A stretch of DNA of 64,000 nucleotides. Source: Parcubacteria group bacterium. GTDB taxonomy: Bacteria > Patescibacteriota > Patescibacteriia > UBA1558 > GWA2-36-10. The stretch's first letter is position 1, and each line of letters begins with the position of its first letter. The DNA is taken from the NCBI GenBank assembly GCA_003104935.1, contig PQAE01000006.1:1037-65036 (forward strand). Direction: 5' to 3'. The notes under the pieces were generated by a model. That model was given only the letters and a program-made list of their open reading frames with translations. It searched no databases and had not been told where the DNA came from. Shown here piece by piece: positions 4,585 to 55,806 of the stretch. The position numbers and the translations under genes are program-made.

Positions 4585-5151
4585 TTATTCTTCTTTACCG
4601 TCGCTCAAATCTGCTTGCAATAGTTGGGCCAGATTTTCATCGTTATTCAACTTTTCAAAATCAGGCAGATCTTTGACGCTGTCCAGTCCCAGATGGCGTA
4701 AAAAATCTATCGTCACTACATAAGTTGTGGCCAAATCATTTTTATTTTCACTGGTCTCAATCAGGCCGCGGATCAGTAAATTGCGAATTATCAAACTGCA
4801 ATTCACTCCCCGGATCTGCTCCAATTCCTCTTTGCTGATGGGCTGACGGTAGGCGATGATAGTCAGAGTCTCCAGTGAGGCCTTGGTCAATTCGCCACTG
4901 ATTTCTGCCTTGAAATAGGCGTTCAGCTCCGGTCCGTCAGCCGGATTGGAAATCATCTGTACTTTGTTATGGCTACTGGCGATGTGAATACCGCTTTCCG
5001 GATGATTATATTTACCCTCCAGTTCCTGCGTTAATTTTTCAACTTCATTTTCCCGGACGTCTAAAAAATCGGCCAATTCTTTGATGGTCAAGGGCTTGCC
5101 CACGGCAAACAGCAGACTCTCTAATAATGCCATTTTATTTTTCTCCGCCAT
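4585..5151 (-). CDS. scpB: segregation and condensation protein B
   Basis: 188 aa; MALLESLLFAVGKPLTIKELADFL typical ScpB N-terminal winged helix; adjacent to scpA. Confidence 0.8.
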   Translation of the reverse strand: MAEKNKMALLESLLFAVGKPLTIKELADFLDVRENEVEKLTQELEGKYNHPESGIHIASSHNKVQMISNPADGPELNAYFKAEISGELTKASLETLTIIAYRQPISKEELEQIRGVNCSLIIRNLLIRGLIETSENKNDLATTYVVTIDFLRHLGLDSVKDLPDFEKLNNDENLAQLLQADLSDGKEE

Positions 5152-5156
5152 ACAAC

Positions 5157-5858
5157 TTACAATTTCTTAATATTTAATTCGCCGAACATCTCGCTTTGTT
5201 GGACCACGATTTCACGCTGTTTGATCAGCTCCAGCATGGCCAGAAAACTAACCACAACCTCCACTTTATCATTGCTATTTTTTATCATCTGACTGAAGTT
5301 CAGACTGACTTTTTCTTTGATCAGATCACGCAGATTTTTTATTTTTTCGCTGATAGAAATAACGCGGTTCATCACCGCCTTGGGCATCTGCATGACCCGC
5401 TCGATCCGGTAAAGAATCTCCTGAAAAACCTGAGCCAGGATACCAGCGGTGATATGAATCGGCGGTAAAAACTCTTTGGCCGCTACGCGTCTATAAGGCA
5501 CATTGCGCACCAAAGCATAGCGTTTTTTACTGTTGTAAAGACGATTAACTACTTTACTGGCTTCATAATATTGTTTATAGATTTTCAGTTGCCGCTCCAG
5601 CGAGCCAGCGTCATCCTCGTCGGTCAGATCCAGATTGGGCAGTAAATACTTAGATTTGATATAAATCAATTTAGAAGCAATCAATAAAAAATCCGCCACC
5701 TCCGCCGATGGTAAATTTTCGCTTTTTTCTATATATGATAAATACTGGTCAGTGACCTGAGCCAGGGAAATCTGGGTAATTTGCAGTTTATCTTTCTCAA
5801 TCAGCGACAAAAGCAAATCCAGCGGCCCCTCAAATTTTTCCAATGAAAATTGGTGCAT
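5157..5858 (-). CDS. scpA: segregation and condensation protein A
   Basis: 233 aa; LEKFEGPLDLLLSLIEKDKLQITQISLAQVTDQYLSY kleisin N-terminus. Confidence 0.8.
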   Translation of the reverse strand: MHQFSLEKFEGPLDLLLSLIEKDKLQITQISLAQVTDQYLSYIEKSENLPSAEVADFLLIASKLIYIKSKYLLPNLDLTDEDDAGSLERQLKIYKQYYEASKVVNRLYNSKKRYALVRNVPYRRVAAKEFLPPIHITAGILAQVFQEILYRIERVMQMPKAVMNRVISISEKIKNLRDLIKEKVSLNFSQMIKNSNDKVEVVVSFLAMLELIKQREIVVQQSEMFGELNIKKL

Positions 5859-7354: not shown

Positions 7355-8770
7355 TTATTTTTTTACCTGAATGCCTAATTCGTCTAATTGCTCTTTAGAT
7401 ACCGCCGAAGGCGAATCCATCATCGGATCCCGTCCGTCTGAAGTTAGTGGAAAAGCAGTTACTTCTTTCAGATTTTTCTCACCCAGCAAAACCATCAATA
7501 ATCTATCAATGCCCGGCGCAATGCCGCCATGCGGCGGTACGCCGTATTTAAAAGCTTCAAAATAATGGGCAAATTGTTTTTTCTGTTCTTTTGTAAAGCC
7601 GATAATGTCCCAAATTTTTTCCTGTAATTTCATATCGTGGATGCGAATCGCTCCTCCACCCACTTCAAAACCATTGAGTACCAGGTCATGCTGATAAGAT
7701 CGAACAGCACCAGGATTTTTGTCTAATTTCTTTATATCCTCTTCTTTAGGAGCGGTAAACATATTATGCGCCGGCCCCCATTTTTCGCCGGCATAATGAA
7801 AGGTGTCTTCTTTGGTCTGAGGCAGCATCAGAGGGAAATTTAAAATCCAGGCAAAAGCCAATTCATCCGGATTATTTTTATCTTTTCTTAGATCCGGCTT
7901 GTCGGTCTTGTATTTTTTTATAACCTCGTCATAATCCAAACGCGGCCATGGTTTTTGGCTAATTTTTTTCTCGGGAAATAAAGTTTCTACTAGTTCGGTG
8001 AATAATTTTTCAGTTAAGTCCAAAACATCTTCTTGTTTTACGAAAGATATCTCCATATCCAGCTGATAAAACTCGCCGGGACTGCGGTCAGCCCGGGCGT
8101 CTTCATCACGGAAGCACGGCGCAATCTGAAAATACTTTTCCATGCCGGCAATCATCAATAGCTGTTTGTACTGCTGGGGCGCCTGAGGCAGGGCAAAAAA
8201 CTCGCCGGGGTGTAGCCGCGACGGCACCAAATAATCTCGCGCTCCTTCCGGAGTGGATTTGGATAATATTGGAGTTTGGATTTCTACAAAATCATGCGCA
8301 TGCAAATATTCCCGGATAAAATGAATGACTTTGTCGCGCCACAAAATATTATTTTTCATGCGCTCATGACGCAGATCTAAATATCTGTATTTTAATCTTA
8401 ATTCTTCATTGGCCTGTCTGTCTTCATTAGCAATTTCAAAAGGCGGAGTTTCCGACTGGGATAAAACCTGTATTTTCTTGACCAGTAATTCAACCGTGCC
8501 CGTAGGCATATCATTATTAATCTGCTTGTCTCCTCTTTTCTGGACTACTCCTTCCACAGCCAAAACAAATTCCGGCCGGATATCCTTGATAATTTGCTGC
8601 GACTCGGAGTCCAGCTCATTTGGCACGACCACGACTTGCATGATTCCCCAGCGGTCGCGCAAATCTAAAAACACTATTTTGCCCATATTGCGCCGGTTAT
8701 TGACCCAGCCTTTGATTAAAACAGTTTTCCCGACCTGAGACACTGTTTCGATGGTTTTGATTCGGTTCAT
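7355..8770 (-). CDS. aspS: aspartyl-tRNA synthetase (short form lacking the GAD insertion domain)
   Basis: 471 aa class II aaRS; QQYKQLLMIAGMEKYFQIAPCFRDEDARADRSPGEFYQLDMEISF closely matches the AspRS motif 2 region (QLLM...CFRDEDLRADRQPEFTQ); N-terminal OB fold. Confidence 0.85.
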   Translation of the reverse strand: MNRIKTIETVSQVGKTVLIKGWVNNRRNMGKIVFLDLRDRWGIMQVVVVPNELDSESQQIIKDIRPEFVLAVEGVVQKRGDKQINNDMPTGTVELLVKKIQVLSQSETPPFEIANEDRQANEELRLKYRYLDLRHERMKNNILWRDKVIHFIREYLHAHDFVEIQTPILSKSTPEGARDYLVPSRLHPGEFFALPQAPQQYKQLLMIAGMEKYFQIAPCFRDEDARADRSPGEFYQLDMEISFVKQEDVLDLTEKLFTELVETLFPEKKISQKPWPRLDYDEVIKKYKTDKPDLRKDKNNPDELAFAWILNFPLMLPQTKEDTFHYAGEKWGPAHNMFTAPKEEDIKKLDKNPGAVRSYQHDLVLNGFEVGGGAIRIHDMKLQEKIWDIIGFTKEQKKQFAHYFEAFKYGVPPHGGIAPGIDRLLMVLLGEKNLKEVTAFPLTSDGRDPMMDSPSAVSKEQLDELGIQVKK

Positions 8771-8869
8771 CCCCTTAGAAATTTAATGATTTATGTTTTT
8801 ATAAATAAAGTGTTTTATCCCCCAGAAATTCTTGAAGTTTAGTTCGCAATTATTTAAATTTCTAAGGGG
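8771..8869 (-). promoter_or_regulatory. inverted-repeat leader hairpin sequestering the aspS RBS and start codon
   Basis: 16-bp perfect IR CCCCTTAGAAATTTAA (8771-8786) / TTAAATTTCTAAGGGG (8854-8869); in the mRNA the downstream arm contains the SD (AAGGGG) immediately before ATG. A second copy of the same element lies at 25884-25943. Confidence 0.4.
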
Positions 8870-8917
8870 ATTCATAAGTATTTATTATCTATATTTTGTA
8901 ATATTTTCTTTGGTGTG

Positions 8918-8941
8918 GATTCCCGCTTTCGCGGGAATGAC
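8918..8941. repeat. solo palindromic motif GATTCCCGCTTTCGCGGGAATGAC (also forms the inner arms of the element at 55702-55780)
   Basis: rc = GTCATTCCCGCGAAAGCGGGAATC; near-identical to GTCATTCCCGCGCAGGCGGGAATC at 55702-55725. Confidence 0.4.
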
Positions 8942-9034
8942 GGTTTGCAGTTTGTCAATGCGAGCCGCGCTCAGCGCGGCGTGGCAATCTACAAGCTTTT
9001 AGATTGCTTCGTCGCCAACAGCTCCTCGCAATGG

Positions 9035-9337
9035 CTACAGGTCCAACAAATCGTCATGTAAATCGCACCATTCTGGATTATCTTTTTTAATTAAAGCTAT
9101 CTTTTTCTTTCTTGGCCCTGCCTTTATATATTTTTCTCTGGAAATAGCATCATGTATATTATCAAATGTTTCATAATACATCAGATTATTAACATTGTAC
9201 CGAGCAGTAAATGATCTTGGATTTATCTTCTCTTTATGTTGGCGCACTCTCAATAATAAATTATTCGTGACGCCAGTATACAAAGTGCCGTTCTTATATG
9301 TAGCTAAAATATAAACAAAATACTGCTTATCGCGCAT
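9035..9337 (-). CDS. GIY-YIG nuclease superfamily protein (UPF0213/YhbQ-like)
   Basis: 100 aa; YFVYIL...GTLYTGVTNNLLLRVRQH matches the GIY-YIG catalytic core. Confidence 0.7.
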   Translation of the reverse strand: MRDKQYFVYILATYKNGTLYTGVTNNLLLRVRQHKEKINPRSFTARYNVNNLMYYETFDNIHDAISREKYIKAGPRKKKIALIKKDNPEWCDLHDDLLDL

Positions 9338-9358
9338 TGCTTTTCTTCACTTAAACAA

Positions 9359-9575
9359 TGGAGCCACCCGTCCCGCCTGTGGCGGGACGACCTCTTCCTT
9401 ATGCCGCCTGAGGCGGCACCCCGCCAGCGGGCGTGGCGAAATTATTGTTTGTGGAGCCGACTATCGGGCTTGAACCGATGACCTGCGGTTTATGCCGCCA
9501 GAGTATAACGAAGTGCGGCACCCCGCCCGCTGGCGGTGGCGATACCGCCGCTCCCCGCCTGCCTGCGCCTTGGTC
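9359..9575 (-). repeat. two tandem degenerate tRNA 3'-half-like units, each fused to a conserved GC-rich hairpin module
   Basis: Unit 2 (9461-9545): rc ends ...GGCGGCATAAACCGCAGGTCATCGGTTCAAGCCCGATAGTCGGCTCCA with a canonical T-arm, acceptor 3' strand and CCA, but no matching 5' acceptor strand. Unit 1 (9359-9443): rc ends ...GGCGGCATAAGGAAGAGGTCGTCCCGCCACAGGCGGGACGGGTGGCTCCA and shares TAAGGAAGAGGT with tRNA-Thr. Both share the module TTATGCCGCC..GCGGCACCCCGCC.GC.GGCG.TGGCGA. Confidence 0.4.
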
Positions 9576-9652
9576 TGGAGCCGATGGTCGGAATTGAACC
9601 GACAACCTCTTCCTTACGAAGGAATTGCTCTGCCAGTTGAGCTACATCGGCG
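9576..9652 (-). tRNA. tRNA-Thr (anticodon CGU)
   Basis: rc GCCGATGTAGCTCAACTGGCAGAGCAATTCCTTCGTAAGGAAGAGGTTGTCGGTTCAATTCCGACCATCGGCTCCA; cloverleaf with 7-bp acceptor, D-arm GCTC/GAGC, anticodon loop TTCGTAA, T-arm GTCGG/CCGAC, CCA encoded. Confidence 0.8.
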
Positions 9653-9699
9653 CAAGGCCATGGCGGGCAGGTACCAAACTGAGCTAAGTCGGCAAAAAA

Positions 9700-10992
9700 C
9701 TATGGTCGCAACCTATAAATCGTCCGGGGAAATGGAATAGACTCACGCACATGTTGCAGACCGCAGACCCAGGCCACCATTCTTTCTAAACCCAAACCAA
9801 ACCCGCCGTGCGGCACACTGCCATATTTACGCAAATCCAGATACCACTTAAATTCTTCCAAAGGTAATTTATGTTCTTGGATGCGCTTGAGCAAAATGTC
9901 ATAATCATCTTCTCTCTGACTGCCGCCAATAACTTCACCATAACCTTCCGGAGCCAGTAAATCGGCACACAAAACTCTATTATTATCCTCTGGGTCGCGC
10001 TTCATATAAAAAGCTTTGACCTTAGCCGGATAATGGGTAACAAAAATCGGATTATCATGGGTCAGGGATAATTTACCCTCATCTTCGGCGCCCAGATCGT
10101 CATCAGCTTTAATTTTAGAACCGTTTTTTTGCAGCCAGGAAACGGCTTCCGCATGAGTCATCTTGAAAAATGGCTTATCAATGTTTTCCAAGGGCTTAAT
10201 ATCCCTTTCCAAAATGGCCAGCTCTTCTTTATTTTTTTCTAAAACATTTTTGACCATAAAGCGCACCAGTTCTTCCTGAATCTTAAGATTGTCAGCAAGC
10301 TCGGTAAAGGCCATCTCGGCATCCATCATCCAAAACTCGGTCAGATGGCGACGGGTCTTGGATTTTTCCGCGCGGAACACCGGACCAAAATCAAATACCC
10401 GATTGTGGGCAAACATGGCTGCCTCAATATAAAGCTGTCCACTCTGCGACAGGTATGCCGTTTCGTCAAAATACTTGAGTTTAAACAACTCCGTAGTGCC
10501 TTCACAGGCATTAGGAGTTAGAATCGGCGCGTCAATCTTAGTAAAGCCGTTGATTTTCATAAAATCATAAATGGCCAAGGTCAAGGTATTGCGCACGCGC
10601 TGTATGGCCCACTGTTTTTTGGAACGCAACCAGAGATGCCGGATGTCCATCAAAAAATCTATGCCATGATCTTTTTTTGCGATCGGATAATCAGCCGCAA
10701 TCTGATAATAATATAATTCGCTAACCTGCAACTCGTACTCTTCGCGCTTGGGGTGTTTGGCCACTCTGGCGACTACCTTGACGGAACTTTCCAAGCTAAC
10801 ATCTTTGGATTTATGCCAAAGTTCCGGGGCTAATTCCGCCTCGTTTAAAATCGCCTGGCACTGACCCGTGCCGTCGGATAGCTCCCAAAAGGCGATTTTT
10901 CCAGAACTACGAAAATTCTTCACCCAGGCGTTGATTTCTACGCTCTGGCCGACATATTGACCCAAATCTTTGATAAATACTGCCTTAGTCAT
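9700..10992 (-). CDS. asnS: asparaginyl-tRNA synthetase
   Basis: 430 aa class II aaRS; FRAEKSKTRRHLTEFWMMDAEMAF matches the AsnRS motif 2 (FRAE..T.RHL.EF.M.E). Confidence 0.85.
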   Translation of the reverse strand: MTKAVFIKDLGQYVGQSVEINAWVKNFRSSGKIAFWELSDGTGQCQAILNEAELAPELWHKSKDVSLESSVKVVARVAKHPKREEYELQVSELYYYQIAADYPIAKKDHGIDFLMDIRHLWLRSKKQWAIQRVRNTLTLAIYDFMKINGFTKIDAPILTPNACEGTTELFKLKYFDETAYLSQSGQLYIEAAMFAHNRVFDFGPVFRAEKSKTRRHLTEFWMMDAEMAFTELADNLKIQEELVRFMVKNVLEKNKEELAILERDIKPLENIDKPFFKMTHAEAVSWLQKNGSKIKADDDLGAEDEGKLSLTHDNPIFVTHYPAKVKAFYMKRDPEDNNRVLCADLLAPEGYGEVIGGSQREDDYDILLKRIQEHKLPLEEFKWYLDLRKYGSVPHGGFGLGLERMVAWVCGLQHVRESIPFPRTIYRLRP

Positions 10993-12256: not shown

Positions 12257-14017
12257 TTAAATCCGGCGACGCCGGACTCCGCCAACGGCGGAATATTTGA
12301 CGGGGTAAACTTCCTTTGATTTTTTCATATAATGCGTATGGCAAACACTCTTGGCATTTTTCTCGTCATCCAGAAAATTTTTATAAACATCCTGCACTAT
12401 CGGGCTGTCCTCGGCCACCCGGATTTTATTTTTAGTATCGATAGAGTACAGACCGGCGGCCCGCTTTTTTCTGATCTCGTCATCGACCGGCACCGGCTGG
12501 CCGCCGCCACCGATGCAGCCGCCAAAGCAAGCCATCACTTCCACATAATCATAAGCCCCGGGATTTTTCTTTAGTTCCGCGATAATAACCTTGGCATTGG
12601 CAATGCCGTTAGCCACCGCCACCTTAACAATTTTATCCTTCACTTTAATATCGGCTTTTTTCAGGCCTTGGATGCCCCGTACTTGTTCAAACTCTATCTT
12701 CGGCAATTTCCGACCGGTGATCATCTTATAGGCCGTACGCAAAGCCGATTCCATCACTCCGCCCGAGGCGCCGTAAATCACGCCGGCTCCGGTGGGCTGG
12801 GCAAATATCGGATCCGGTTTGGATTCGGGCATAGTTTTCAAATCAATGCCCTTTTTTCTAAAGATATGGGCCGCTTCCCGTACCGTATAGACATGGTCAA
12901 CGGCTCTTAGACCACTAATCTTCATCTCCGCCCTTTGTACCTCATATTTTTTAGCCACACAGGGCATGATGGACACCACTATTATATCCTTGGGATTGAG
13001 CTTCATTTTTTTGGCCCAGTAGGTCTTGATCAGCCCGGCCATGATCATCTGCGGCGATCGGGTGCTGGTCAGATAAGGGATGAGCTCGGGATGAAAAAAC
13101 TCTACATACTTGACCCAACCTGGACAGCAAGAAGTAAACAACGGCAAATTTTTCTTATTTTTAATTCGTTCAATCAACTCTTTAGCTTCTTCAATGGTGG
13201 TGACGTCCGCTCCCACGCTGGTATCAAAAACATATTTAACTCCTAATTTTTTTAAAGCGCTGATCAGACGCCCGGTAGCTACAGTGCCGTAGGGCAAGCC
13301 GAATTCCTCGCCGATAGTCGTACGCACCGAAGGCGCAAACTGCCAGACTACGGTCTTATCCGGCCGTTCAAATACTAGGTCTGAGTCCTCAAATTCTCCC
13401 ACGCCCTCAAAGGCGCCGACCGGACAATGGGTCAGACATTGACCGCAATAAATACAATCATGACAGGGATCGGCTGAGGGCATGACTTCAAAAAACTTGC
13501 CGTGTTTTTTATATTCCAGAAAATCCACGCCGACCTTATGACAGGCTTCTACGCAGAGTCCGCAGTCCACGCACTTTGAGCTGTCAAACTCCAGAGCCGG
13601 TCCAAAACGATGCACCGGATAACCGGCTTTGCGGTCGGGAAACTTATTAATGTTAATTTTCCAATCTTTGGCATAATGCCTGATTTTACAATTCTGCAAA
13701 TAAATACAGTCGCGGCATTCTTCGCAATGCTCGGTAAATATTAATTCTAAATTTACGGCCCGCGCTCTCCTGGCATCGGATGCCTCGCTATTTACTTCCA
13801 ATCCTTCCTGCACCGACAAAGTGCAGGCCGACTGCAGGCCCGGTTTGCCTTTGATTTTGACCTGGCAAAGACGGCAGGAACCCTGGATTTTTAAGTCCGG
13901 GTGAAAACAAAGATGGGGGATCTCCTGGCCATTGGCCAGAGCCACTTCTAAAACATTTTGCCCAGGATCAGCCAAACAGGTTTTACCGTTGATAATGATT
14001 TTTATCTTTTTAGACAT
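12257..14017 (-). CDS. hydA: [FeFe]-hydrogenase catalytic subunit
   Basis: H-cluster motifs L1 FTSCCPGW, L2 IMPCVAKKYE, L3 EVMACFGGCIGGGGQP; N-terminal 2Fe-2S and two 4Fe-4S Cys clusters. Start trimmed to MSKKIKII (ATG rc of 14015-14017) to avoid a 76-nt overlap with the upstream gene. Confidence 0.85.
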   Translation of the reverse strand: MSKKIKIIINGKTCLADPGQNVLEVALANGQEIPHLCFHPDLKIQGSCRLCQVKIKGKPGLQSACTLSVQEGLEVNSEASDARRARAVNLELIFTEHCEECRDCIYLQNCKIRHYAKDWKININKFPDRKAGYPVHRFGPALEFDSSKCVDCGLCVEACHKVGVDFLEYKKHGKFFEVMPSADPCHDCIYCGQCLTHCPVGAFEGVGEFEDSDLVFERPDKTVVWQFAPSVRTTIGEEFGLPYGTVATGRLISALKKLGVKYVFDTSVGADVTTIEEAKELIERIKNKKNLPLFTSCCPGWVKYVEFFHPELIPYLTSTRSPQMIMAGLIKTYWAKKMKLNPKDIIVVSIMPCVAKKYEVQRAEMKISGLRAVDHVYTVREAAHIFRKKGIDLKTMPESKPDPIFAQPTGAGVIYGASGGVMESALRTAYKMITGRKLPKIEFEQVRGIQGLKKADIKVKDKIVKVAVANGIANAKVIIAELKKNPGAYDYVEVMACFGGCIGGGGQPVPVDDEIRKKRAAGLYSIDTKNKIRVAEDSPIVQDVYKNFLDDEKNAKSVCHTHYMKKSKEVYPVKYSAVGGVRRRRI

Positions 14018-31530: not shown

Positions 31531-31607
31531 TGGTGCGCCCAGTAGGATTCGAACCTACGACCGTTTGCTTAAAAGGCAACTGCTCTACCAGGCTGAGCTA
31601 TAGGCGC
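31531..31607 (-). tRNA. tRNA-Lys (anticodon UUU)
   Basis: rc GCGCCTATAGCTCAGCCTGGTAGAGCAGTTGCCTTTTAAGCAAACGGTCGTAGGTTCGAATCCTACTGGGCGCACCA; anticodon loop CTTTTAA; T-loop TTCGAAT; CCA encoded. Confidence 0.8.
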
Positions 31608-31904
31608 ACGAAAAAAATTTGTTTTAAATTTACCCCATTGTGTCTAAAGCAAAAGAGCGAAGCCTGGAAGGCTGCTGTGCCCCGCGAAGCCCCGAACGAA
31701 GTGGGGGGCGAAGTGGGGAGCTATAGGCGCATGAAAATACCATTTAATTATACAGCAAATACGAAAAAAATTATATTGTATTTTGAGTTTTTTGTCAATC
31801 TTTAATATCTAAAAATTATTGTCATAATTGCTAAAAAACCTAAAAAATGATAGCATTTATAAAGAAAATATTATTTGTAAAAGTTTAATAAATAGATAAC
31901 CTTT

Positions 31905-55680: not shown

Positions 55681-55806
55681 GGCCGAAGCTGGCCTTATTT
55701 TGTCATTCCCGCGCAGGCGGGAATCTAAAAGTATTATCATATCACTTAGCCTGTAGATTCCCATTTTCATGGGAATGACAGACAAGGCATACGGCCAGCT
55801 TCGGCC
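55681..55806. mobile_element. MITE-like nested palindromic element
   Basis: Outer 14-bp perfect IR GGCCGAAGCTGGCC (55681-55694) / GGCCAGCTTCGGCC (55793-55806). Inner inverted pair of hairpin motifs GTCATTCCCGCGCAGGCGGGAATC (55702-55725) and GATTCCCATTTTCATGGGAATGAC (55757-55780). No coding capacity; intergenic between the rplJ leader and mltG. Confidence 0.45.

Follow-up and report, generated by a model that had tools for sequence, protein, structure and literature searches.

Nested and interrupted tRNA-Thr genes suggest tRNA replacement by an apparently undescribed kind of hairpin-ended mobile DNA in Candidate Phyla Radiation bacteria

The 64,000-nt stretch of Parcubacteria DNA analysed here (the window; contig PQAE01000006.1) carries three copies of a tRNA-Thr(CGU) gene between asnS and aspS. 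One copy, (a), is split into three pieces, an intact copy, (b), lies inside it, and a third copy, (c), is represented by its 3' part. We are highly confident of this description of the locus, including the nesting, the allelic identity of the copies and the two families of insert. Both insert families, a cassette that carries a tRNA gene and a cargo-less GC-rich double-hairpin module, recur at the same tRNA positions across many genomes of the Candidate Phyla Radiation (CPR), beside or around an intact tRNA gene with the same anticodon. Comparison of these sequences suggests that the locus probably records the serial replacement of tRNA-Thr(CGU) by CPR-specific, hairpin-ended mobile DNA. All features of the array are on the minus strand of the window. 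Labels L001-L095 denote related loci retrieved for comparison with the window, using patterns taken from the window's own sequence. The original prediction for this locus had recognised a canonical tRNA-Thr followed by two degenerate tRNA 3' halves (unit 1 and unit 2), and had viewed the latter mainly as scars of integrase-mediated insertion and excision.

Copy (a) is a whole tRNA-Thr(CGU) gene in three pieces (9693..9452), located 6 nt from the asnS stop codon, and it includes the former unit 2. Its 5' part (9693..9672; 22 nt, GCCGACTTAGCTCAGTTTGGTA) lies upstream of the intact tRNA and consists of the acceptor strand GCCGACT, U8 and A9, the 5' strand of the D-stem (GCTC) and the D-loop sequence AGTTTGGTA. 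With the exception of the D-loop, this part is the same as in the uninterrupted allele of L058, L061 and L007. The middle part (9553..9540), which is identical to GAGCGGCGGTATCG in L058, comprises the 3' strand of the D-stem (GAGC), G26, the 5' strand of the anticodon stem (GCGGT) and ATCG, ending at G35. The 3' part (9492..9452) continues with TAA, the 3' strand of the anticodon stem (ACCGC), the variable loop (AGGTC), the T arm ATCGG-TTCAAGC-CCGAT, the acceptor strand AGTCGGC, U73 and CCA. The perfect T arm (ATCGG/CCGAT), the acceptor strand, U73 and the CCA end at 9452 had already been identified correctly. The claim that neither unit has a matching 5' half is true of unit 1 and mistaken for unit 2. 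GCCGACT pairs with AGTCGGC (9462..9456) at 7 of 7 positions in a minimum free energy (MFE) fold, and the MFE fold of 9692..9449 closes the acceptor stem of copy (a) around all of the intervening sequence. All of the stem pairs of copy (a) are intact (21/21). When the two inserts (9671..9554 and 9539..9493) were removed in silico, ARAGORN called a perfect 77-nt tRNA-Thr(CGU) cloverleaf. Unit 2, described as degenerate in the original prediction, therefore does fold as a complete tRNA once its gene is freed of inserts.

The first insert of copy (a) is a cassette of 118 nt (9671..9554), situated in the D-loop between GGTA and GAGC. It contains copy (b), an intact tRNA-Thr(CGU) gene with an encoded CCA (9651..9576), which was called by ARAGORN and scores 66.6 bits with the Rfam tRNA model (gathering score 29), in agreement with its earlier designation as canonical. 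The D-loop of a disrupted tRNA-Thr gene thus houses a working copy of that gene, and copy (b) is the only copy expected to work. The tRNA is flanked on one side by a 5' arm (CCTGCCCGCC, 9671..9662) and a 5' linker (ATGGCCTTGC, 9661..9652), and on the other by a 3' linker (GACCAAGGCGCA, 9575..9564) and a 3' arm (GGCAGGCGGG, 9563..9554). The arms (10 nt each, GC-rich) pair with each other in the predicted fold, as do the linker segments GCCTTG and CAAGGC. The second insert is a module of 47 nt (9539..9493) between G35 and U36 of the anticodon loop (ATCG|...|TAA). Its hairpin 1 is CCGCC-AGCG-GGCGG and its hairpin 2 is TGCCGC-16 nt-GCGGCA.

Alignment of the locus across relatives, a check that the original prediction had proposed, revealed an empty site. 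The closest relative, L058 (with an asparaginyl-tRNA synthetase 86% identical to that of the window), has the uninterrupted sequence GCCGACTTAGCTCATCTGGTAGAGCGGCGGTATCGTAAACCGCAGG directly after asnS, and up to the contig end, which falls inside the tRNA, this sequence equals copy (a) without the cassette and without the module. Both inserts are therefore presence/absence polymorphisms at an orthologous site, as observed between the single orthologous pair of the window and L058. L061 and L007 carry the copy (a)-type allele in complete form. An 805-nt portion of the locus is 100% identical in L064, an independent Logan assembly, so the array is not an assembly artefact. When introns were allowed and the D-loop insert was removed by hand, ARAGORN interpreted copy (a) as tRNA-Met(CAT) with a 47-nt intron. 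The comparative data identify the anticodon as CGU, split by the insert, and an intron-containing tRNA-Met or tRNA-Ile2(CAU) is ruled out by the uninterrupted loop ATCGTAA of L058, L061 and L007.

Copy (c), the former unit 1, is the 3' part of a tRNA-Thr(CGU) gene (9440..9359). It begins with a remnant of the anticodon loop (TTCG, 9440..9437), followed by a module of 35 nt inserted at G|TAA (9436..9402), and it ends with the acceptor 3' strand GGGTGGC, U73 and CCA (9361..9359). Its T-loop position is occupied by CCGCC-ACA-GGCGG (9385..9373). Without the module, copy (c) reads TTCG-TAA-GGAAG-AGGTC-GTC[CCGCCACAGGCGG]GAC-GGGTGGC-T-CCA and aligns with a GCCACCC-type tRNA-Thr(CGU) that is intact at the same locus in L003, L059 and L005, except that the T-loop and two inner stem pairs are replaced by the GC hairpin. 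The same combination of a module and a T-loop hairpin was found in L017, L028, L030 and L051. In L003 the GCCACCC-type tRNA is followed by an orthologue of the GIY-YIG nuclease gene that follows copy (c) in the window. The 5' half of copy (c) is gone, with neither another copy of the module nor a GCCACCC tRNA start found within the window. A split tRNA was also considered for unit 1 and rejected, as no separate 5' half is encoded anywhere in the window.

Two similarities that the original prediction had pointed out can be placed in this context. Unit 1, ending at 9359, does share TAAGGAAGAGGT with the intact tRNA, and the modules of copies (a) and (c) do have the exact 13-nt sequence GGCGGGGTGCCGC, TCGCCAC... 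and GGCGGCATAA in common. The AGCG and CGCT loops are mutually reverse complementary, as had been noted; they are loop differences and not compensatory changes in the stems. A search for the GC module elsewhere, also proposed originally, yielded no third copy within the window.

Paired substitutions in the acceptor, anticodon and T stems distinguish the three tRNA copies, and each copy matches the functional allele of a different relative. The acceptor strands, for example, are GCCGACT/AGTCGGC in (a), GCCGATG/CATCGGC in (b) and ..../GGGTGGC in (c). These paired differences indicate that (a), (b) and (c) evolved separately as functional alleles and did not arise by decay of duplicates. Copy (b) shares 68% identity with (a), compared with 83-84% with the alleles of L071, L003 and L001. 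Its acceptor and T arm (GCCGATG..CATCGGC) are of the type most commonly borne by cassettes (6/16 cassettes), and in the anticodon arm it matches the (c)-type allele of L003 and L059 exactly. Copy (b) thus looks like a chimera of a cassette-type acceptor and T arm with a (c)-type anticodon arm.

To characterise the module family, we scanned for GGCGGGGTGCCGC-N3-25-GGCGGCATAA in one genome per species. The scan returned 49 loci, of which four are chance matches in GC-rich genomes and 45 are CPR-type (57 copies). The metagenome-assembled genomes (MAGs) bearing the module are labelled Komeili-, Kerfeld-, Falkow-, Buchanan-, Moranii- and Saccharibacteria. Nine loci (L013, L015, L021, L032, L036, L038, L047, L048 and L057) are titled 'uncultured Gammaproteobacteria bacterium'; these MAGs have a CPR-type tRNA cluster, the module and the GIY-YIG gene, and their taxonomic labels look wrong. 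A typical module is 35 nt long and consists of two 7-bp hairpins, CC-A-CCGCC nnn GGCGG-GG and T-GCCGCC nnn GGCGGC-A. The 5' arm of the module, GCCACCGCC, lies outside the search pattern and is exact in 42 of the 57 copies, and the loops are hypervariable (19 and 27 variants). A single long hairpin, in which loop 1 would pair with loop 2, was rejected as the general structure: one instance folds in this way, and the loops do not covary across instances. The module was not matched in viral contigs.

The insertion point of the module is precise. TAA directly follows all 64 of the 64 full modules, including those at loci fetched with an unrelated pattern. Excision of the module restores a 7-nt anticodon loop exactly, as in CTG|TAAA for Tyr(GUA), TTTG|TAA for Thr(UGU) and TCG|TAA for Thr(CGU), with no target-site duplication. 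Most of the tRNA copies that bear a module lack one half, and three layouts recur. In 18 cases a tRNA-Tyr 5' half is followed by the module, an open reading frame (ORF) for a GIY-YIG protein of 78-100 aa and an intact tRNA-Tyr. Here the ORF starts 9-28 nt past the module wherever the start is separately callable, and the intact tRNA-Tyr lies 253-292 nt past the module in 15 cases and farther away in three. In the second layout (9 cases), a 5' half and the module are separated from an intact tRNA by 25-41 nt in eight cases and by 115 nt in one. In the third (15 cases), an intact tRNA is followed, after 17-33 nt in ten cases and after a longer spacer in five, by a few anticodon-stem nucleotides, the module and a 3' half. 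Every module copy in a tRNA context has an intact gene with the same anticodon in the same stretch, with only two exceptions, both of which are cut by a contig end. Disrupted copies often bear additional single hairpins in the D-loop, CCNCCGCC nnn GGCGGGG.

The module also occurs outside tRNA genes. In L011, a Patescibacteria MAG, a 36-nt copy (5732..5767) lies in-frame within tsaD and is read through as 12 codons, adding 12 residues (CHRLWRGAALGR) to an unbroken ORF of 375 aa. Three further copies have no tRNA nearby. In its conserved stems, variable loops and many copies across unrelated contexts and genomes, the module resembles short palindromic mobile elements. A tandem arrangement was observed in L033 (7646..7990), where an intact tRNA-Tyr is followed by an array with a 101-nt period, each unit being a spacer, the module and a Tyr 3' half; the two units are identical to the 3' half of the intact gene over 45 nt, and a 5' half, a module and a GIY-YIG gene are located upstream.

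The cassette family was retrieved from metagenomes with the commonest 3' junction, CCAGGCGATCGGCAGGCGGG, which gave 35 loci, 22 of them CPR-type. Over all loci compared there are 16 distinct nested cassettes, counting that of the window (four Thr(CGU), six Thr(GGU) and six Thr(UGU)). In all 16, a tRNA-Thr lies within a tRNA-Thr, and the outer anticodon is the same as the inner one wherever it can be read. Ten of the 16 cassettes are in the D arm (nucleotides 21-25) and the remaining six are at G|TAA, the point used by the cargo-less module. The arms CCTGCCCGCC/GGCAGGCGGG also bracket an intact tRNA-Thr in L037, L030, L014 and L043. In L015 there is a further level of nesting, and the inner copy too is disrupted. 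In L014, where the tRNA is on the minus strand (5240..5131), the linkers have their usual orientation but the two arms of 10 nt (CCCGCCTGCC ... GGCGGGCAGG) have been swapped or flipped; the arms may thus form a palindromic unit that can be separated from the rest.

The 5' arm and linker of the cassette are conserved although they lie outside the search pattern. The linkers are of several types, three of which are clearly self-complementary: AGTCGCC/GGCGATC, GCCTTG/CAAGGC (the type in the window) and CGCCTTAGCC/GGCTAAGGCG (L093). A stem of about 17 bp is thus kept by compensatory change. The inner 3' halves of four UGU cassettes are 90% identical to each other, compared with only 65% for the outer halves that they interrupt, and several of the outer halves have different stems that are perfectly paired. 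Entry of related cassettes into resident genes that had diverged would produce this pattern. In the window, L071, L087, L088, L089 and L095, paired differences in the stems show the inner and outer copies to be distinct functional alleles; those of L037 are nearly identical.

A small GIY-YIG nuclease gene adjoins the array, as the original prediction had stated. It encodes 100 aa (9337..9035, minus strand; PF01541, E=5e-14) and starts 21 nt past the CCA of copy (c). The PF01541 match covers residues 5-77, leaving a protein with a catalytic domain only. The same is true of the GIY-YIG proteins at module loci, which are 78-100 aa in length and have no separate DNA-binding domain. Between asnS and aspS, the window, L003 and L059 have the gene, whereas L001, L005, L060 and L061 lack it. 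A profile built from the window protein detected 36 further ORFs in module loci. When ORFs from 61 related loci were clustered, the small GIY-YIG proteins were the only enriched non-housekeeping family (36/61 loci); there was no transposase or integrase cluster and no TnpA gene was seen among these loci. Neither the window protein nor the GIY-YIG protein linked to tRNA-Tyr had a match in NCBIfam or PHROGs. In PADLOC, the window protein had no match and the Tyr-linked protein had two marginal ones (E about 0.002-0.004). The only relative in the PDB by sequence is the UPF0213 protein BH0048, with a weak match (E=0.04). The layout of a 5' half, hairpins, a GIY-YIG gene and an intact tRNA recurs at another tRNA in L071 (4040..4490). 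Here a 5' half of tRNA-Gln, with one hairpin in its D-loop and a double hairpin of another sequence after TTG, precedes a GIY-YIG ORF and an intact tRNA-Gln, which lies 17 nt past the GIY-YIG stop codon.

Under the replacement reading, the cassette would be a self-complementing insertion that destroys the resident tRNA-Thr gene and brings its own replacement, so that only copy (b) would work. Copy (b) would be transcribed as part of the asnS and outer-copy transcript, from which RNase P and 3' processing would release it, and the flanking stem of the cassette may act as a processing stem. Dead copies would gather further cargo-less hairpin elements and then be lost piecemeal. Such decay of superseded copies would give the series (a) then (c), in which we infer that copy (c) is the older. 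The siting of cassettes in tRNAs of their own anticodon and the chimeric appearance of copy (b) suggest that spread includes homology-dependent copying after a break. Specifically, the DNA would be broken at conserved loop sequences and then copied from a filled allele, in a homing-like manner, which would account for the cassette always being found in a tRNA with its own anticodon. The accompanying small GIY-YIG nucleases would be the most likely source of the breaks; that they do play a role in spread is a tentative proposal and we regard it as somewhat doubtful. It is conceivable, though less than we would assert, that these elements represent an active and unrecognised class of CPR selfish DNA, in which a cassette of about 115 nt homes into the D-loop or anticodon loop of resident tRNA-Thr genes as a replace-and-addict drive, cargo-less derivatives insert at G|TAA, and a minimal GIY-YIG nuclease, or another enzyme acting on hairpin or single-stranded DNA, mobilises both in trans.

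Several observations weigh against replacement by mobile DNA. There is no target-site duplication, and the 61 related loci contain no recognisable transposase. The junction of the D-arm cassettes varies between nucleotides 21 and 25, which is unlike the action of a strict site-specific enzyme. The GIY-YIG protein of the window and the Tyr-linked ones fall into different subfamilies, and for 10 of the 22 cassette loci the retrieved stretch contains no GIY-YIG gene. The retrieval patterns came from the window, so conservation of those parts of the elements that belong to the patterns is forced. The dead outer copies mostly have perfect stems, and may be young or still functional. Finally, the siting of cassettes in tRNAs of their own anticodon is explained equally well by local duplication.

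Such a local duplication, through slippage or unequal crossing-over at a highly transcribed gene with subsequent decay of one copy, is an alternative that we consider improbable without dismissing it. The GC stems would then be non-mobile RNA elements under selection, namely processing stems, stabilisers or RNase III sites that aid release of the tRNA from a long transcript. This would fit the consistent location of the cassette within a tRNA of the same anticodon, the near identity of the inner and outer copies in L037, and the intact stems of the outer copies. The complementarity of the linkers is kept by compensatory changes, as it would be for a selected stem, and a promoter scan of the region from asnS to the array found no promoter-like site, which means that the inner tRNA has to be released from a longer transcript. 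Duplication does not explain, however, why the inner and outer copies are different functional alleles in the window and in L071, L087, L088, L089 and L095, or why one 35-nt module with unchanged stems recurs across distant CPR groups, within tsaD and at three sites with no tRNA nearby. Unrelated tRNAs are interrupted at exactly the same point, G|TAA, and close relatives differ by filled and empty sites, both of which also argue for insertion of mobile DNA over duplication.

The original prediction had offered, as one option, an interrupted tRNA that cloverleaf parsers miss. This fits the gene to which unit 2 belongs, copy (a) being a flawless tRNA once its inserts are removed; the inserts themselves behave as mobile insertions and not as introns. 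We consider it very unlikely that the copies are functional interrupted or split tRNAs, whether with new protein-dependent or archaeal-like introns or with halves joined in trans. The inserts do sit in loops, where archaeal introns are located, the modules are GC-rich helices that resemble the leaders of Nanoarchaeum split tRNAs as they are generally known, and the intron mode of ARAGORN takes the 47-nt module as an intron, although it miscalls the product as tRNA-Met(CAT). Yet every module copy that is not cut by a contig end has an intact neighbour with the same anticodon, most module-bearing copies lack a half, the T-loop is replaced and not interrupted in copy (c) and in four other loci, and the module in tsaD is translated through. 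The inserts, at 35-47 nt, gave no match to the group I intron model (Intron_gpI) at the gathering score or at E<=10 in 8800-9800, and they form no bulge-helix-bulge, their junctions lying in a 7-nt/5-nt internal loop in the predicted fold (energy model only). The interpretation favoured originally, partial duplications of the attL/attR type that a phage or genomic island would have left on integrating into tRNA-Thr and excising again, is contradicted by the structure of the locus and appears highly improbable. It draws on the mobile-looking nuclease gene next to the array, and Williams reportedly described partial tRNA copies beside an intact tRNA as the classical signature of integration in 2002. 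The units, however, come from other alleles, as seen from their acceptor strands (AGTCGGC and GGGTGGC versus CATCGGC) and their different anticodon stems; the gene of unit 2 surrounds the intact tRNA instead of following it; and the break points in the D-, anticodon and T-loops do not correspond to one crossover segment. There is no integrase or island between asnS and aspS in the window and eight relatives, no integrase family in the 61 related loci, and no match of the module in viral contigs.

The proposed hairpin-ended elements have partial parallels among known systems. Rickettsia palindromic elements (RPEs), repetitive extragenic palindromes and bacterial interspersed mosaic elements (REP/BIME) and Correia elements are short, non-coding, palindromic and multicopy DNA, and palindromic elements of the RPE kind can be located in-frame within protein genes and inside RNA genes. 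The CPR module is likewise short, palindromic, non-coding and multicopy, with an in-frame copy in tsaD. It differs in being much shorter (35 nt), in its exact G|TAA insertion point (64/64), in its overwhelming preference for tRNA anticodon loops and in having a related form with an entire tRNA gene as its cargo. Integrative elements directed at tRNA genes are kilobases in length, encode an integrase and restore the gene by replacing only its 3' segment. They resemble the cassette in that the inserted DNA breaks a tRNA gene but brings what is needed for a working tRNA, whereas the CPR cassette is about 115 nt long, encodes only a complete tRNA and has the resident gene wrapped around it. Palindrome-associated elements derived from IS200/IS605 have hairpin ends, cause no target duplication and insert beside a fixed tetranucleotide, which is TTAC for IS608. 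On the opposite strand G|TAA is TTA|C, which can be compared with the IS608 target, except that the cut is within the tetranucleotide and not after it. The phage T4 protein SegB has a DNA-binding part and leaves tRNA genes intact. It is described as a free-standing GIY-YIG homing endonuclease encoded in the T4 tRNA cluster, which cuts the allele without segB and promotes inheritance of itself and of the flanking tRNA region (PMC2330249). The replacement reading borrows this logic of a GIY-YIG gene among tRNA genes. SegB differs in being a phage protein, whereas the CPR proteins are predicted nucleases of 78-100 aa with a catalytic domain only, and unlike segB their genes have a truncated copy of a tRNA on one side and an intact copy of that tRNA on the other.

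Yeast mitochondrial GC clusters and the hairpin elements of sponge mitochondria are described as GC-rich, hairpin-forming, mobile and free of protein-coding sequence, in compact genomes (PMC4478555, PMC2800124). Unlike the CPR elements, they are organellar and have other target preferences. We know of no such mitochondrial element that carries a tRNA gene or nests a gene in its own copy. In CPR bacteria, rRNA genes contain short (<200 bp) uncharacterised inserts without an ORF as well as inserts encoding GIY-YIG proteins (Tsurumaki et al. 2024, PMC11270868). These inserts are unlike group I and group II introns, and most of them are at the top or base of stem-loops (PMC11270868). The survey concerns the same host group and covers rRNA genes only, with the word 'tRNA' not appearing in its text (PMC11270868). 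Inserts in rRNA must be removed or tolerated, whereas the interrupted tRNA-Thr described here is bypassed by an intact copy. Archaeal tRNA introns and split tRNAs involve loop interruptions, including at non-canonical positions; introns have moved between tRNAs in Thermoproteales, and GC-rich helices lie beside the halves of split and tri-split tRNAs (PMC10714607). The interrupted tRNA genes of archaea are the only gene copies and give working tRNAs through the splicing endonuclease, in contrast to the CPR copies, which have an intact twin, are in many cases truncated and are found in a bacterial host. In the full-text literature searched, which mostly leaves subscription journals outside its coverage, there was no description of interrupted or nested CPR tRNA genes and no account of a hairpin-ended mini-element that takes a complete tRNA gene into a copy of that gene. 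Hairpin elements that replace tRNA genes are thus apparently an undescribed kind of mobile DNA, akin to palindromic elements and to selfish DNA that targets tRNA genes.

If the cassette is mobile, it would be the smallest self-complementing element known to us, and would provide a new horizontal route for the turnover of an essential RNA gene, in which the tRNA cargo makes the insertion harmless. Such a route would explain the half-genes that litter CPR tRNA clusters, and it would give a testable role to the abundant and unexplained small GIY-YIG proteins of CPR and other groups. The 35-nt module and its exact G|TAA target offer a handle for finding the responsible enzyme. These loci are also a trap for annotation: tRNA finders miss the outer copies, intron mode miscalls them, and GC hairpins are translated as spurious ORFs.

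In the window, the array is bordered upstream by asnS (10992..9700, minus strand) and downstream by aspS (8770..7355, minus strand). The asparaginyl-tRNA synthetase encoded by this asnS matches an NCBI protein labelled "Parcubacteria group bacterium" with 100% identity. The interval between them is 929 nt, and the GIY-YIG gene is the sole ORF there with a protein-family match; the other short ORFs are few and span the tRNA copies and GC-rich repeats. The order asnS-tRNA-aspS is retained in relatives, where it contains no integrated element or integrase. An Rfam scan of the window and a permissive scan (E<=10) of 8800-9800 found only tRNA, with everything else far below the gathering scores, and ARAGORN found no tmRNA or permuted tmRNA. 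The motif CCGCC-N3-5-GGCGG occurs five times in the window compared with 0.19 expected, and three of the five occurrences are inside the 200-nt stretch of the array. A match at 7524 encodes the PPHGG motif of the aspartyl-tRNA synthetase and is not an insertion. A CCGCC-N3-GGCGG hairpin at 12279..12291 overlaps the final codons of a [FeFe]-hydrogenase-like gene (C-terminus ...GGVRRRRI). It is kept in L001 (2714..2726) and is therefore not a recent insertion; it could be an old insertion or a terminator within the coding end.

Directly after the GIY-YIG gene there is a nested palindromic element (9034..8900, minus strand), in which an outer stem (CATTGCGAG/CTCGCATTG) surrounds GCAATCTA-8 nt-TAGATTGC, together with GC hairpins that differ among relatives. 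L003 has the same frame with different hairpins. The next hairpin, ATTCCCGCGAAAGCGGGAAT (8939..8920), occurs a second time at 55702..55725. The ORFs at 8832..9002 and 8915..9061 are spurious and arise from translated palindromic repeats.

A partial tRNA copy was also observed elsewhere in the window. The first 13 nt of the tRNA-Lys(UUU) gene (31607..31531, minus strand), GCGCCTATAGCTC, are duplicated upstream at 31730..31718. This 5' fragment ends after the D-stem strand and is followed by a GC-rich, hairpin-forming stretch. A near-consensus promoter, TTGACA-17-TATAAT (31798..31770), is located upstream of the fragment and not of the intact gene. Fragments of the same style as this tRNA-Lys 5' fragment are also present in L003, L007 and L059.

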